This document shows, in pieces, positions 27,272 to 48,589 of a stretch of 48,743 nt of DNA. The notes beneath the pieces are model-generated. The model worked only from the letters and a program-made list of their open reading frames with translations. It was not told the origin of the DNA and made no database searches. The first letter of the stretch is position 1. Every line of letters begins with the position of its first letter. The stretch comes from Bacilli bacterium. GTDB lineage: Bacteria; Bacillota_I; Bacilli_A; RF39; UBA660. Position numbers and translations under genes: made by a program. The stretch is from NCBI GenBank assembly GCA_045613165.1, contig JAZLAK010000018.1, forward strand, positions 1-48,743, in the 5' to 3' direction.

Positions 27272-27295
27272 TAAAAAAAAGAAGCATATGCTTCT
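27272..27295 (-). terminator. rho-independent terminator closing the T4SS-like cluster
   Basis: Palindrome agaagcat/atgcttct (27280-27295) directly after the coupling-protein stop codon, followed on the minus strand by T8. Confidence 0.6.
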
Positions 27296-29578
27296 CTATT
27301 CATCTTGAAAGAAATCATCAAAATATTGATCATCTGTTATTGAATTATCATTAATAACGTTAGTATCTATTTCTTTTTTATCTTCTTTTTTATTTTCTTC
27401 AACAATATTATTTTCATTTAATATATCACTAAATGTTTTTATATTACGATTATCTAAATTTAATATATCTAATTCTTCGATATTTTCGTCTTTATTATCT
27501 AATTCTACAGAATCTATATTATCTTTAGAATTATCCAATGATTTTAAATCATCTTTAAATTCATTTATAACTGTTTCAGAATCTTTGTTATCAAATACTT
27601 CAATAGTTTTATTTTTTTCTTTTTCTAATCTTTCTTCTTCTTCAAGTTCTGCAATTTTTGCATCAATTTTCTTTAAAAGTTCATCAACATCAACTTCACC
27701 ACTACCTTCAAATGGATTTGGAAAACTGTTTTTCATATCATTATTTCCAGAACCAAATGGACTAGGAGTTATAAATGGATTAGGATTTCCAAAAGGATTA
27801 GAAGGTTCAAATGGATTAGGTCCCATACCTCCACTTGGCATAGGATTAGAATTTAAATTGTTCATAACCCTTTCTTTTTTTCTTTTATTAACATAATCTT
27901 TTAAATCAAATAACCCTATCTCGCCTTTAGTTCTTTCAATAAATTCAGCTTTAGGAAAAGAATTTCCCCAATTTATCTCATAACTAGGTTTCAATTTTGT
28001 TTTAAATGGGTTTAATCTAGTTCTCATTATAATAGCTTCATTCATCTTCATTTTTTGTAAATCACTTACAGTAACTAATGGAGTTGAAGCAGTTTTATCC
28101 TTTTCCTTACTTTTCTTTTCACCACATAATTTACTAATTTCTTCTAAAGCGGCTAATTCAGTTGTTAATAAATAAATTAAATTACCACAATTACTTCTTA
28201 TAGTTTCAGCATCTTCTTTACCATATACATCATTTAATTGTGCAAAATTTTGTATTATAAATGTAAATCTTATTGCTCTACTACGCGCAGCAGTAACCAT
28301 TGTTGTTACATCTTTTAAAGGGGGCATATTGGCAAATTCATCAAGTATAAAGTTAGTTCTAACTGGCAACTTTCCACCACATTCTTGTGCAACATCAATT
28401 AATGTCTCATAACATTGTTTAATGAATATTGTTGCTAATGCATGATATGTAGTTTTTTCATCATGAATAACCATAAACACTGCTGTTGGTTGCTTACCAA
28501 TATCTCTCATGTTAAAGTCACTTTTTGATAACATTTCAGATAATTGTTCACGACTCGCAAATAATCTTATCTTTTGTCTAAATACAGCAAGTATTCCACC
28601 TTTAGTATCAGTTGGCGAATTTATAGTATTACTTGCAAATATATATGGAGTACTAGACTCACCTTTTATATTAAAATATTCTTTAATATAATTTGATGGC
28701 GGACATTTTTCTTCTCCAACTGTTGTAACATAACTTATAGAATTTAAATTTACTTCTTCCTCTTTAGCATCTTCAAATAAACCTAATGTTACTCCAGCAA
28801 AATAATCGGAAGCACTTTTTTCCCAAAAAGGATCTTGCGCTTTTTTATCTTGAACAATATTTAACGCAACGTCGTCAACTAACTCTGTTGCTTTGTCTGT
28901 ATTTCCAGCTTTATATAATTGATAAGGTAATGTTAAAGGATTCCAACAATTACCTTTTTGAGGTTCACGAAAATTTAAAACAATAATTTTATACCCTCTA
29001 TCACGTAACATATTTGAATGATTTTTGTATATCTCACCTTTAGGGTCAGTTATAACCATACTCTCTCTAGCCTTAGCTAAACTATAAACTAATGGATCAA
29101 CAACACTTGTAGTTTTACCACTACCTGTAGCACCTATAACTAAAGTATGATTTTCACCATTATCAACCCACATATCTCTTCCATCATTAACTAATACAGT
29201 ACCAGCAGCTTCAGAATCTTTATTAGCTATAGGAACTTTTACTACTTTAGATGCTGTTTTAATTTCTTTCTCTTTAGACCAACGTGCATATCCTTTTTCA
29301 TCTTTTTCACCAATACTTAATCCAAACCCCTTACCTTTTTCTCTATCAAATATATAAGAAGAAACACTCGCAAAAATAGAAATTAATACTACAAAGAATA
29401 ATAAAAATGTCCCTAATATATATCTAGAACCAAACCCAGCAAAAGGATTAAATCCAATAAATTCACCTTCATTTATAATATTTACTGCATTACTAACAGC
29501 AATACTACAAAGAAATAATAAGAATATACAAAATATTATAAAGATAATTAAATCTTTAGAACTAACATTAAATTTCAT
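27296..29578 (-). CDS. type IV coupling protein (VirD4/TraG family) with NPF-repeat and acidic C-terminal tail
   Basis: Two N-terminal TM helices, Walker A VIGATGSGKTTS, TDPKGE, and Walker B NFILDEFANMPPL. Confidence 0.85.
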   Translation of the reverse strand: MKFNVSSKDLIIFIIFCIFLLFLCSIAVSNAVNIINEGEFIGFNPFAGFGSRYILGTFLLFFVVLISIFASVSSYIFDREKGKGFGLSIGEKDEKGYARWSKEKEIKTASKVVKVPIANKDSEAAGTVLVNDGRDMWVDNGENHTLVIGATGSGKTTSVVDPLVYSLAKARESMVITDPKGEIYKNHSNMLRDRGYKIIVLNFREPQKGNCWNPLTLPYQLYKAGNTDKATELVDDVALNIVQDKKAQDPFWEKSASDYFAGVTLGLFEDAKEEEVNLNSISYVTTVGEEKCPPSNYIKEYFNIKGESSTPYIFASNTINSPTDTKGGILAVFRQKIRLFASREQLSEMLSKSDFNMRDIGKQPTAVFMVIHDEKTTYHALATIFIKQCYETLIDVAQECGGKLPVRTNFILDEFANMPPLKDVTTMVTAARSRAIRFTFIIQNFAQLNDVYGKEDAETIRSNCGNLIYLLTTELAALEEISKLCGEKKSKEKDKTASTPLVTVSDLQKMKMNEAIIMRTRLNPFKTKLKPSYEINWGNSFPKAEFIERTKGEIGLFDLKDYVNKRKKERVMNNLNSNPMPSGGMGPNPFEPSNPFGNPNPFITPSPFGSGNNDMKNSFPNPFEGSGEVDVDELLKKIDAKIAELEEEERLEKEKNKTIEVFDNKDSETVINEFKDDLKSLDNSKDNIDSVELDNKDENIEELDILNLDNRNIKTFSDILNENNIVEENKKEDKKEIDTNVINDNSITDDQYFDDFFQDE

Positions 29579-29631
29579 GATTACTCTCCTTCATTCAAAC
29601 ATATTATAAAACAAACAACATTTTTTTTCCA

Positions 29632-30312
29632 TCATTTATTAGAATTTTTTACCTTTTCATAAATTACAACAGTTGAAATTAAAATTACTATTCCCATAAC
29701 TCCTAAAATAATATAAAGAATATTACTTTTTTGATTTGAATTTGATAAACTGATTATATTTTCTTCTTCCGCAAAAATAATTTTTATATTTTTATTATAA
29801 GAATTTTCTCTATTTATCTCCCAATAATATATATTATCTATAACTTTATCAGCATTATTATAAGACACTTCTTTATCAGTAGAAATTTCAATACTAATAT
29901 TGTTTAATTCTAAATATTTATCATAAATATCATTTATCTTTCCACTTTCTAATGTATTAGCACTAAATTTCATATCAGGAAAAACCATTCTTCCTATTTG
30001 AGTATTATCATATTCATCTTTATTAAAGTCATATTTATATTCTAATTGCAGTATAGGATCCATAATTAACTTCTTTGTATAATAAGAATAACCAAATGAT
30101 AATCCTTCCTCTTTTGTATAATCGGATACATCTAAGTAATTCGTAGATAAATCAAATGCATAAACACTTTCAACTTCTTCTTTAAATTTATCTATATTTT
30201 TTATAACTACATCTTCTTTAAAAGTATTATCAACAAACTCTAACTTATAAGTTATATCACAACCAGTTAAAAAAGTCATCACAAATAATAAAAAGAATAA
30301 TTTTAATTTCAT
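29632..30312 (-). CDS. lipoprotein with additional C-terminal TM anchor, unknown function
   Basis: Lipobox FLTGC after a signal peptide. C-terminal hydrophobic segment ILYIILGVMGIVILISTVVIY. Confidence 0.6.
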   Translation of the reverse strand: MKLKLFFLLFVMTFLTGCDITYKLEFVDNTFKEDVVIKNIDKFKEEVESVYAFDLSTNYLDVSDYTKEEGLSFGYSYYTKKLIMDPILQLEYKYDFNKDEYDNTQIGRMVFPDMKFSANTLESGKINDIYDKYLELNNISIEISTDKEVSYNNADKVIDNIYYWEINRENSYNKNIKIIFAEEENIISLSNSNQKSNILYIILGVMGIVILISTVVIYEKVKNSNK

Positions 30313-48200: not shown

Positions 48201-48525
48201 CATAACACGCGCCTTGTCTCCATATACATCCACTACTTGTACACTTACTATGATCTTTTATACTTCTACAATAACTTGTTGTTATCTTTCTTGTAGTTGT
48301 TGTAGTTTTCTTAGTAGTTTTCTTACTTGTTATCTTTGTACCATTATAACAAGCATTTTGTCTCCATATACAATTATAACCACCTGCTGTCTTACCTTGA
48401 CAATTAGTTTTTGATTTTATTGAAGTACATGTTGCAGCTTCTACAAACATTCCCATAATGAAAAAAAACAACATTCCCACAAATAACTTACTTAATTTTC
48501 GTTCATTAAAAGTTTTACTACTCAT
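45247..48525 (-). CDS. large cysteine-rich TM-anchored surface protein/adhesin with 4-5 C-terminal cadherin-like repeats
   Basis: Start reset to MSSKTF (GAGAGG SD upstream). Signal peptide, duplicated C-x-SIK...CIWRQxACY modules, a GGS linker, a Listeria-Bacteroides-repeat-like segment, repeated YRY...C modules, repeats of the type TLSDIILNVGDINFNANVTDYKIEV..., and a C-terminal TM helix. Confidence 0.65.
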   Translation of the reverse strand: MSSKTFNERKLSKLFVGMLFFFIMGMFVEAATCTSIKSKTNCQGKTAGGYNCIWRQNACYNGTKITSKKTTKKTTTTTRKITTSYCRSIKDHSKCTSSGCIWRQGACYAGLSSSNTTTTRKVTTSFSTCGTTNKAWGSISECTGRGYTYDSTNKCCNTSSKKNGNTCGQSNYGTWTKSSCNAKVVSGKCHLWNNNNGCCNITSGSCSVFGGSSGGTSGGSSGGSSPTVITYKVLFDQNYGYGLACDAGFSVPTAGVCQKTGIAGGTKVNFPASSSSMYRDGQGQLIGWTKTVSNGAPNCNSNVIVKDSSFTVSANTDFYACYREDIGGYRYLQKDYVADGGSVDFTCGQQIWIEYCTKESGTDYCYYYENSTGKYRKIYRMKLASTYEGAACSADNTATATPEDVGYRYVKLNGQNYSCGDQLYITTCTSDACNYTKIKKSSGEISENGTIDKDYLDDNQSDAKKACDKLEDNKCSNTSMKSMRKASSYTICYDKDATNAEVKELLEEYYKCDTKNGYYFDRTAVSAESKESCNSKGICTRTYRVSCTKGNSAKPTLSVTSGIVQSNGYGTIRVTATAKEGVIDSYFTSDYYLTPTDSNTWVPINGNSFTIESSPGVKYIWVRDSKGNISNAVSGAVIDTTNTNTTINKLQLYDANGNVQNPVSSGTAYKVADVKNNNYVRLSNDLSKDSKVVADAFNPYDMEYKLEVDSPTVSVYATLTSTDSKYVDGFEPRTVNLNYGINTVLIKIQNKEGITRTYTILVTRTDSRTSDNTLSDIILNVGDINFNANVTDYKIEVPKSTTSVDVQATIASNKASYVSGYEPDIIDINGDTTVKLIKVKSETGSTRTYVLTFVKEGTDTITKESLQIEDLVIPGVYMPFEEDIANYSLSVGYETDTIDINSVLKDEDSIASISIKKKSDTEYKVVSNKGIGLDVGENFIEIRVIDKENEESYYRLTIIRKEFGLEVSNDTTLKDLRVLNYEKAIDFDPNKKEYTVKIKQEKSLVITAVPNNNRAEVFIRGNDELTGFSTVRVKVVAENGEYETYSIDIKKDAFNKTIEIASIVAGVVIILVSSGIIIVKKKSKANREYFEE

Positions 48526-48560
48526 ATTAAAACCTCTCACTTTCTATTTTATACATCTTA

Positions 48561-48589
48561 ATAATACTATATTTATTAAAATAGTTCAA
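48561..48589 (-). promoter_or_regulatory. promoter of the cluster (TTGAAC-17-TATTAT)
   Basis: On the minus strand, TTGAAC (48589-48584), a 17 nt spacer, and TATTAT (48566-48561), about 35 nt upstream of the adhesin ATG. Confidence 0.5.

Follow-up and report, generated by a model that had tools for sequence, protein, structure and literature searches.

Gene content of the locus

The DNA analysed here (the window) is an entire contig of 48,743 bp with a GC content of 27% from a metagenome-assembled genome (MAG) of a Bacilli bacterium assigned to RF39 (JAZLAK010000018.1). Nineteen open reading frames (ORFs) on the minus strand, all oriented in the same direction and designated g01 to g19 from the first gene to the last, occupy positions 27296-48540 and adjoin the S10-spc-alpha operon. 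The spacing between genes of this cluster ranged from -14 to +96 nt. The cluster encodes a monoderm (Gram-positive, MPF_FATA-like) type IV secretion system (T4SS), with genes or candidate genes for all of its core parts. A preliminary description of the window had proposed a T4SS cluster of 19 minus-strand genes next to the S10 operon, and both parts of this proposal were borne out: its VirD4 and VirB4 homologues were supported by Pfam as well as NCBIfam models, and genes of the S10-spc-alpha operon were identified beside it. The core components are the following:

27296-29578, minus strand: g19, VirD4-type coupling protein (T4CP; PF02534, 2.8e-57; PF10412, 7.9e-26; PF12696, 1.3e-24)
32009-32503, minus strand: g16, distant paralogue of g15, bitopic and presumed NTF2-like (hhalign of family A3 against family A4, 93.8%, E 1.8e-7)
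32503-33009, minus strand: g15, bitopic protein with an N-terminal transmembrane (TM) helix and an NTF2-like ectodomain, VirB8-like in architecture (AlphaFold pLDDT 87.1)
35119-36921, minus strand: g13, C-terminal motor part of the VirB4 ATPase (PF12846 (AAA_10) and PF19044 (P-loop_TraG), about 1e-11)
36914-37474, minus strand: g12, N-terminal fragment of VirB4, TrsD/TraC-like (NF045975, 1.3e-17, profile positions 96-281)
37461-37775, minus strand: g11, VirB3/PrgI-like protein of 104 residues with two TM helices (hhalign)
37794-40268, minus strand: g10, VirB6-like polytopic membrane protein of 824 residues with six hydrophobic segments

The T4CP passed the NCBIfam model of the CD1115 family (NF045973) with 303 bits at a cutoff of 250, and its architecture comprises two N-terminal TM helices and an acidic low-complexity tail at the C-terminus. 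VirB4 is split over two ORFs, g12 and g13. The motor part encoded by g13 matched NF045975 at 5.2e-104 (profile positions 294-891), the CD1110 family at 6.5e-50 and TIGR00929 at 4e-26. Both ORFs missed the cutoff of NF045975, the VirB4 equivalog of mycoplasma integrative and conjugative elements (ICEs), which lies at 590 bits (348.7 bits for g13 and 62.8 bits for g12). Relatives of g12 matched PF26593 (TraC-like), and in BLASTP g12 itself matched the ORF located between PrgI and VirB4 on the Bacillus thuringiensis plasmid pBMB67 at 8e-18.

Direct Pfam and NCBIfam scans of g11 gave no matches; hhalign comparison of 41 g11 homologues with the PrgI-family protein of pBMB67 returned a probability of 83.5% (E 8.3e-6) and a common N.YLIP.N.K motif. 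The VirB6-like g10 occupies the conserved slot upstream of VirB3 and VirB4 and matched the models NF045848 (MMCAP2_0566, 2.5e-12) and NF045889 (Mbov_0396, 7.8e-8), both under cutoff. Its residues 51-116 matched PF18895 at 5.6e-4 as a pilin-like N-terminal hairpin, which is followed by a Gly-rich and Cys-rich ectodomain and a long C-terminal tail; pairwise comparison of g10 with TrbL of pBMB67 revealed no similarity. Foldseek matches of the g15 model were all NTF2-like and included TcpC (3ub1), TrwG (4nhf) and CagV (6iqt), yet every E value was at least 0.01. Searches of PDB sequences with the profiles of g07, g15, g16 and the pilin family yielded nothing meaningful.

Chromosomal context and tests for mobility

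The preliminary description had noted no DNA-processing or integration genes, tRNA or flanking repeats in the 48.7 kb, and the scans and repeat search agree with it. Neither a relaxase nor a recombinase, transposase or replication initiator was found in the window by Pfam and NCBIfam scans of the cluster and scans of the non-cluster ORFs. The 48.7-kb window contained no tRNA, and the longest direct repeat between the cluster ends measured 9 nt, under the shuffle mean of 10.2; an att-like repeat was not found there. A relaxase hidden among the cluster ORFs of unknown family was considered and rejected, as all ORFs except g07, g12 and g13 have TM or signal segments; with g07 being ParA-like, the operon leaves no room for one. 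When 13 kb of the cluster were compared with plasmids by Megablast, there were no matches, and neither GC content nor GC skew showed a break at the cluster borders relative to the rest of the contig.

Because the window is the whole contig, the region beyond its right edge was read in relatives instead (loci fetched from other genomes carry L numbers). In the sister species represented by L084, whose VirB4 is 99% identical, PolA, RNase J and a lipoprotein of 141 residues are encoded upstream of the g01 homologue. The last 200 nt of the window are 88% nucleotide-identical to the 3' end of this lipoprotein gene, and the 3.8 kb upstream of the cluster in L084 contained neither a relaxase nor a recombinase. 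At the opposite end, four other sister species with 90-96% identical VirB4 (L004, L005, L006 and L010) exhibited the same junction as the window, leading from the T4CP gene to a convergent family-2 glycosyltransferase (GT2) gene. This junction extends into S10 in L005 and L006 and further into L3 in L005, and the identities between the window and L005 were 96% for VirB4, 94% for S10 and 89% for L3. Two origins had initially been put forward for the cluster. An ICE with its MOB module past the right edge was not upheld, given the PolA, RNase J and lipoprotein genes upstream in L084 and the GT2/S10 junction in four sister species, and a chromosomally fixed T4SS-derived machine was the origin that the sister-species flanks, the shared junction and the co-divergence of VirB4 with housekeeping genes favoured.

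The flanks of the 80 best loci consisted of housekeeping genes, encoding RmuC, DedA/VTT, M16 peptidases, MurC and a DnaI-like helicase loader as well as EzrA, Dus, ClpP, TrmD and a tRNA synthetase, and no recurrent mobility gene was seen in them. These flanks were scanned as individual families and as 130 family representatives with the top 25 Pfam families considered for the latter, a design that rare mobility genes could escape; a relaxase was neither among the individually scanned families nor among the 25 families of the 130 representatives. VirB4 identity tracked flank identity with rho values of 0.82 for RmuC (120 pairs), 0.68 for VTT and 0.80 and 0.83 for the M16 peptidases, all of which are descriptive only, since the pairs are non-independent.

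Distribution and rates of change

When one genome per GTDB species was scanned, at least 549 species representatives were found to encode a relative. The best 80 species loci, which are syntenic with the window and encode a VirB4 75-99% identical to that of the window, derive from uncultured gut MAGs of human, rabbit, ruminant and mouse samples labelled as Bacilli, Tenericutes, Mollicutes or Erysipelotrichaceae. Gene presence was counted over loci with enough flank, and fast-evolving genes are under-counted in these figures. Homologues of g11 and g12 were detectable in 59/59 loci each, followed by g10 (55/59), g08 (46/59) and g05-g07 (37/59), and the T4CP was detectable in 40 of 47 loci.

Measured against the respective protein of the window over the fetched loci L001-L082, identities were highest for VirB4 (g13, 75-99%), the TrsD-like g12 (56-98%), VirB3 (g11, 38-97%) and the T4CP (g19, 46-86%) and reached down to 23-52% for VirB6 (g10), 26-73% for the adhesins (g01-g03) and 24-38% for g18. 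Judged by these ranges, conservation prevails in the cytoplasmic and motor parts, and the parts predicted to be exposed are fast-evolving. In a comparison of VirB4 with 1.84 billion cluster representatives, the clade appeared as one representative of a 50% cluster at 72% identity, followed by two at 43-45%, and the rest did not exceed 34%. Named VirB4 outgroups were Thomasclavelia/Coprobacillus, Solobacterium, Erysipelotrichaceae and a Mycoplasmatota plasmid, and the best plasmid VirB4 (B. thuringiensis pBMB67 type) was 29% identical.

A reduced form of the cluster was observed in one sub-lineage (L047, L048, L053, L055, L056, L058, L059 and L065), which encodes pilin-like, VirB6, VirB3, TrsD-like and VirB4 proteins and has neither a nearby T4CP nor homologues of g14-g18. 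Several of these reduced loci carry arrays of collagen-triple-helix-repeat proteins downstream of VirB4.

Pilin-like proteins and the Tad-like trio

Upstream of the VirB6-like gene, the cluster encodes several small predicted surface proteins and one cytoplasmic protein:

40279-40632, minus strand: g09, VirB2-like pilin paralogue (PF18895, 0.0029)
40714-41067, minus strand: g08, VirB2-like pilin paralogue (PF18895, 5.4e-5, 23.6 bits at a cutoff of 26.6)
41131-42165, minus strand: g07, cytoplasmic protein of 344 residues, TadZ/CpaE-like in architecture (AlphaFold mean pLDDT 70.8, N-domain about 88)
42180-42656, minus strand: g06, pseudopilin-like protein of 158 residues with the N-terminus MRE[AS]IGG[TA]W, one TM helix and a Cys-containing domain
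42678-42989, minus strand: g05, pilin-like protein of 103 residues with one TM helix and a small Cys-rich domain
43086-43544, minus strand: g04, VirB2-like pilin paralogue with a signal peptide, two TM helices and a Cys-bearing tail

The three VirB2-like paralogues named in the preliminary description were corroborated at the family level: g04, g08 and g09 align together as family A7, of whose 81 members 33 matched PF18895 (T4SS_pilin) and five T4SS_CagC. In addition, g08 matched NF045849, the model of the pilin-like Mbov_0395, at 0.0019. Cysteine positions are conserved in this pilin family.

Genes g05-g07 had been described as a Tad/Flp-like trio, a designation that was upheld in part. The N-termini of g05 (MKEA[ST]GEL[SN]MT in an alignment of 40 homologues) and g06 are invariant, the g05 gene always adjoins g06 and g07, and g06 is present in duplicate in several relatives. 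An identity of g05 and g06 as Flp or TadE was not supported, as the Flp and TadE models were unmatched and the G/xxxxEY motif is absent. The predicted structure of g07 comprises a receiver/flavodoxin-like N-domain and a MinD/ParA-like C-domain with a degenerate Walker A motif (HAGATT). In Foldseek searches against the PDB it matched HypB, MinD, FlhG and FleN with E values of 3e-5 to 1e-3, with TadZ not among the top matches, and g07 had no matches to sequence families or PDB sequences. The cluster encodes no TadA, TadB or TadC, and a tblastn search of the window for the T2SSE ATPase and membrane proteins that relatives encode gave no matches. In the distant relatives L038, L039, L051, L070 and L071, Tad-like genes precede g05 or adjacent pilin-like genes and encode a CpaB/RcpC-like protein (weak match), a T2SSE ATPase (1e-27) and two polytopic membrane proteins. 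Since these distant relatives and pBMB67 carry such a module and the window does not, the g05-g07 trio looks like a retained part of a Tad-like module ancestrally tied to this type of T4SS rather than a complete Tad system.

Surface proteins, wall hydrolases and an exchanged cassette

The remaining genes of the cluster encode predicted surface proteins and wall hydrolases:

29632-30312, minus strand: g18, hypervariable lipoprotein with the lipobox LTGC and a conserved C-terminal TM anchor
30323-31996, minus strand: g17, membrane-anchored hydrolase with a weak NlpC/P60 match (2.3e-4) at the C-terminus
33025-35103, minus strand: g14, secreted wall hydrolase of 692 residues (M23, PF01551, 2e-26; phage-type lysozyme, PF00959, 5.5e-8)
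43531-44541, minus strand: g03, surface protein of 336 residues with two Cadherin-like domains (PF12733, 4.4e-13)
44638-45234, minus strand: g02, Cys-containing surface protein of 198 residues with a signal peptide and a C-terminal TM anchor, without family matches
45247-48525, minus strand: g01, candidate adhesin of 1092 residues (PF12733, Cadherin-like beta-sandwich, 4.5e-21 over four stretches)

The presence of three TM-anchored Cys-rich surface proteins and of wall hydrolases had both been recognised earlier and agrees with the domain matches, Cadherin-like domains being found in two of the three anchored proteins (g01 and g03). The candidate adhesin g01 has TM segments at residues 14-32 (signal/TM) and 1060-1078 (anchor) and Cys-rich N-terminal repeats with 36 cysteines, and its cysteine content is 3.3% compared with 0.8% in other proteins of the window; its homologues are 26-73% identical. 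The layout of g03 consists of a signal peptide, a Cys-rich region, a Thr-rich linker, the Cadherin-like domains and the C-terminal TM anchor. As g02 was recognisable in just six loci, it appears to be fast-evolving. Cysteines made up 1.8-5.8% of g01-g06, g08, g09 and the g10 ectodomain, all of which are predicted to be extracellular, versus 0.8% elsewhere in the window. This richness implies disulfide bonds outside the cell, with metal sites as another possibility, in what is presumably an anaerobe.

Closer examination of g17, which consists of a cytoplasmic N-terminus, one TM helix, a GDSL/SGNH-like domain and the C-terminal NlpC/P60 domain, was based on the loci L085-L087, L004, L005, L010 and L013. 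Contigs of the same species were 92-97% identical in nucleotide sequence over g14-g16 and the N-terminus of g17, and homology between them stopped at about position 30,967 and resumed at about 29,900, an interval that covers the 3' part of g17 and the 5' part of g18. Despite their differing C-termini, the conspecific g17 proteins were 89-93% identical at the N-terminus. The window encodes NlpC/P60 as the C-terminal domain, L086 and L087 encode Amidase_2, and the domain of L085 is of no recognised type; each variant was closest to a domain from a different species (56-71% identity). In other species, Peptidase_M15_4 or C39/C70 takes this place. By these comparisons, the C-terminal catalytic domain of g17 is a cassette swapped within the species.

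The adjacent lipoprotein g18 was 39-53% identical among the conspecific contigs, with its last approximately 30 residues staying conserved. An interpretation of the g17 C-terminus and g18 as a toxin/immunity pair was not supported, as variation in g18 does not co-vary with the type of g17 domain. In L003, a truncated g17 is followed by a homologue of the SDF symporter encoded at 308-1543 of the window, which replaces g18, the T4CP, the GT2 and S10. This layout reflects either a true rearrangement, located where g17 and g18 are hypervariable, or a chimeric join in the MAG.

Transcription signals and neighbouring genes

The following signals were examined at the ends of the cluster:

48631-48598: hairpin of 15 pairs, 3' of the gene preceding the cluster
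48561-48589, minus strand: candidate sigma-70-type promoter TTGAAC-17-TATTAT ahead of gene 1 (9/12 positions match)
27278-27297, minus strand: terminator-like hairpin and T-run directly 3' of the last gene, g19 (1 found, 0.5 expected)

A terminator after the last gene and a hairpin from the gene preceding the cluster had been reported before, and both were recovered, the former as a hairpin and T-run at 27297-27278. The sigma-A promoter that had been assigned to 48561-48589 was not substantiated: matches of this 9/12 type were no commoner in the window than in shuffled sequence (30 versus an expected 34). With matches at chance level, the candidate is backed by its position alone, 36 nt 5' of the start codon and after the hairpin at 48631-48598. 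The most likely start of gene 1 is the ATG at 48525, which has a GAGAGG ribosome-binding site ahead of it, rather than the GTG at 48540. A scan of the window with Rfam matched no families.

All scanned non-cluster ORFs of the window are housekeeping genes. Those identified in the S10-spc-alpha operon encode S10, L3, L4, L2, S3, L14, L5 and L6 as well as S5, SecY, Adk, Map, S11 and RpoA. The ORFs for S5 and L15 touch or overlap each other (17236-18187), and with no room between them L30 (rpmD) is apparently missing from the spc operon. Other genes outside the cluster include the GT2 convergent to the cluster end, a Mur ligase (MurC-type) recognised via its homologue in locus L048, an S11 D-Ala-D-Ala carboxypeptidase, two Gate-domain proteins, RNA-modification enzymes, NUDIX and HD proteins and the SDF symporter. 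The carboxypeptidase ORF is followed by the two Gate-domain ORFs at 7111-9277 on the minus strand, an arrangement that resembles the dacB-spmA-spmB sporulation operon of Bacillus and hints at a walled spore-former.

Directly downstream of rpoA-rplQ, the minus strand encodes an A24 prepilin peptidase (9335-10090) and a protein of 541 residues with two T2SSF domains (10099-11724), and neither a secretion ATPase nor a pilin gene is located beside this pair (9335-11724). Speculatively, these two proteins could process or assemble the pilin-like g05 and g06. The convergent GT2 (26319-27260) is CsbB/GtrB-like and was present at the cluster end in the window and in sister species, and in L008, L010 and L013 the cluster is interrupted between its g04 and g05 homologues by EpsG-like and/or YfhO-like glycosylation genes. 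Together, the GT2 and the inserted genes may point to glycosylated surface components.

Proposed function and alternative explanations

The cluster is probably a domesticated, chromosomally fixed and vertically inherited monoderm T4SS, present throughout a lineage of uncultured gut bacteria with small, low-GC genomes, and its function would be contact-dependent transfer. Sequence comparisons supported its putative derivation from conjugative systems of the Bacilli/Mollicutes pool. What the loci show directly is gene content, synteny, conservation, chromosomal context and co-divergence with the flanks; for assembly, contact dependence and substrate we infer the following steps. The Cys-rich, Cadherin-like anchored proteins g01-g03 would bind a neighbouring cell, the multidomain hydrolases g14 and g17 would open peptidoglycan, and the VirB6-like g10, the VirB3-like g11 and the NTF2-fold proteins g15 and g16 would form the channel through membrane and wall. 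Assembly would be powered by the split VirB4 (g12 and g13). The pilins g04, g08 and g09, possibly together with g05/g06 and g07, would build an extracellular filament or conduit, which would be unusual in Gram-positives, and the VirD4 homologue g19 would pick a cytoplasmic substrate and feed it into the channel for export. Retention of the T4CP argues for an export function, and the conservation of VirB4 across hundreds of species, which resembles that of ribosomal proteins, favours a lifestyle-critical cell-cell organelle over occasional conjugation.

Several points weigh against this interpretation. The VirB6, VirB8 and pilin assignments are sub-threshold or fold-level matches, and L003 (VirB4 97% identical) as well as 7 of the 47 loci with sufficient downstream flank have no nearby T4CP. 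The chromosomal site of the cluster varies between deeper clades, which fits genome rearrangement and fits ancient mobility too. Furthermore, the searches spanned MAG contigs and 20-kb loci, and a relaxase elsewhere in the genome is possible; likewise, the distribution over the lineage counts presences, and gaps in some genomes are possible. As the T4CP passes the CD1115 model and the best models are those of mycoplasma ICEs, conjugative descent is clear and DNA transfer is still a possible function.

The same relationships underlie the idea that the cluster is an ICE, or a recently immobilised one, with its relaxase and integration module outside the sequenced contig, to which the differing sites among deep clades and the MobP3 relaxase located directly beside the T4CP of pBMB67, the closest plasmid system, would lend themselves. 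We regard this as very improbable: the upstream genes for PolA, RNase J and the lipoprotein in the sister species L084, the GT2/S10 junction downstream in four others, the housekeeping flanks in 80 species and the window without any att-like repeat, tRNA or recombinase all speak against it, as does a VirB4 that co-diverges with its flanks, is conserved like S10 and L3 and is at least 72% identical inside the clade and at most 45% outside. Flanks, junctions, co-divergence and clade isolation together point to vertical inheritance, and an ICE is rejected for this reason as an account of the present-day element. More serious, if still rather unlikely, is a fixed conjugation apparatus that moves chromosomal DNA within the lineage, either independently of a relaxase or with a relaxase in trans, in the manner of mycoplasma chromosomal transfer. 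Such transfer would allow small genomes to recombine, the rapid evolution of adhesins and surface proteins would suit mating-pair specificity or exclusion, and VirB4, VirB6 and the pilin-like proteins, the trio that scores best against the mycoplasma ICE models, would be accounted for together with a T4CP that is kept in 40/47 loci and passes the conjugative CD1115 cutoff. Nearly all known functions of Gram-positive T4SSs are DNA transfer, and mycoplasma chromosomal transfer has been described (PMC12857230). Neither a relaxase nor an oriT was seen, however, the ribosomal-level conservation of VirB4 exceeds the expectation for occasional sex, and some sub-lineages keep the pilins, VirB6, VirB3 and VirB4 without a T4CP nearby.

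The latter loci, in which pilin, VirB6, VirB3 and VirB4 form the best-kept core, would in turn be in line with a machine that only displays a surface filament or adhesin, or that imports DNA like ComB of H. pylori, without T4CP-dependent export; so would the three VirB2-like pilins, the pilin-like g05 and g06 and the Cadherin-domain adhesin-like proteins at the head of the operon. Pilus biogenesis and ComB-type uptake do not require a T4CP. The T4CP is nevertheless conserved (46-86% identity) and lies within the operon in most lineages, and the presence of two large hydrolases, along with the polymorphism of a catalytic cassette, suggests a role beyond remodelling of the cell's own wall, which makes this explanation improbable as well. 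A domesticated T4SS for contact-dependent transfer is the reading we retain for the comparison below.

Comparison with known systems

Mycoplasma ICEs (MICE/ICEA) share the core of the cluster in a module in which CDS5 encodes VirD4 and CDS15/16/17 encode a pilin-like or VirB3-like, a VirB6-like and a VirB4 protein. Their curated models scored best for VirB4 (NF045975), the VirB6-like protein (NF045848/NF045889) and the pilin-like protein (NF045849), the gene order of pilin-like protein, polytopic membrane protein and VirB4 is the same, and the host groups are related. In contrast, every score of the cluster stayed under the equivalog cutoff, its VirB4 is split, a DDE recombinase and inverted repeats were not found here, and the cluster has a fixed position and diverges in step with the chromosome.

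The T4SS of B. thuringiensis plasmids of the pBMB67/pAW63 type (locus L083) exhibits the order VirB6 (TrbL), PrgI, TrsD-like ORF and VirB4, includes a CD1115-type T4CP and has a Tad-like module nearby (SAF/CpaB-like protein, AAA ATPase and T2SSE ATPase), as is also the case in the distant relatives of the window. It differs in a VirB4 of 29% identity, in the Tad-like ATPase and platform genes that the cluster does not have, and in the MobP3 relaxase beside the T4CP as well as the replication and partition genes of the plasmid. The type IV-C T4SS of Streptococcus suis 89K (VirB1/B3/B4/B6/B8/D4) is alike by description in its minimal Gram-positive core of six components, and protein secretion by it has been reported (PMC12857230). 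Unlike the cluster, it belongs to a mobile pathogenicity island with integration functions and strain-variable presence, and pilin paralogues are unreported for it. Literature searches did not find a description of the RF39-type T4SS analysed here.

The closest analogue of the cluster appears to be the relaxase-less, pilin-bearing T4SS of Patescibacteria. In Southlakia epibionticum, the chromosomal T4SS (SEML1_0006-0019) is essential, and VirD4, which is mostly unlinked in Patescibacteria, is non-essential (PMC10633639, PMC12102498). According to a review of late 2025, VirB2-like pilins are known among monoderm T4SSs only in Patescibacteria, whose T4SS was termed unique among monoderms in its growth requirement and pilus potential (PMC12857230). 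Both systems have a monoderm MPF_FATA-type core that is chromosomal, lineage-wide and mainly vertically inherited, with a TrsD-like protein encoded by its own ORF before VirB4, with VirB3/PrgI and VirB6 (here a VirB6-like protein), a divergent array of VirB2-like pilins (PF18895; three paralogues here) and peptidase and lysozyme genes right downstream of virB4, and both loci are without a relaxase in a genome-reduced host lineage. On the other hand, the cluster belongs to a gut bacterium of the Bacilli type, the VirD4 coupling protein is encoded inside the operon, and the pilin-like/ParA-like trio, the Cys-rich Cadherin-like adhesins and the polymorphic hydrolase cassette are extra. Marks of the Patescibacteria system are a monophyletic VirB4 clade and essentiality for epibiotic growth. 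As the nearest named relatives of the VirB4 encoded here are Erysipelotrichales and Mycoplasmatota, the cluster was classified as an analogue and not as a member of the Patescibacteria system.

The resemblance allows a further and distinctly tentative proposal, which we consider unlikely to hold, namely that these abundant, uncultured RF39-like gut Bacilli with small genomes depend on a fixed, pilus-bearing T4SS as a lifestyle-defining organelle to attach to and exploit other cells. Such exploitation would be episymbiosis, parasitism or scavenging, for example of muropeptides or nucleic acids. The organelle would then be a parallel development to the essential T4SS of Patescibacteria, and its polymorphic hydrolase cassettes would be matched to the walls of different partner cells. 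In the orders RF39, RFN20 and ML615J-28, the synthesis of peptidoglycan precursors was reported to be incomplete and muropeptides to be possibly scavenged (PMC10868615), which would suit a partner-directed hydrolase, a link that is speculative.

With the domesticated T4SS proposed here, the same type of domestication would be found in a second, unrelated lineage of common gut Bacilli with at least 549 species representatives, and the traits common to both lineages are the chromosomal location, the relaxase-less locus, the pilin array and the extreme conservation of VirB4. The swapping of hydrolase domains within a species is a clue to partner specificity that can be tested. Should the parallel extend to function, it would offer a handle on how uncultured, metabolically reduced gut bacteria live, for instance attached to or exchanging material with other cells, and would suggest that genome-reduced bacteria repeatedly co-opt conjugation machinery.

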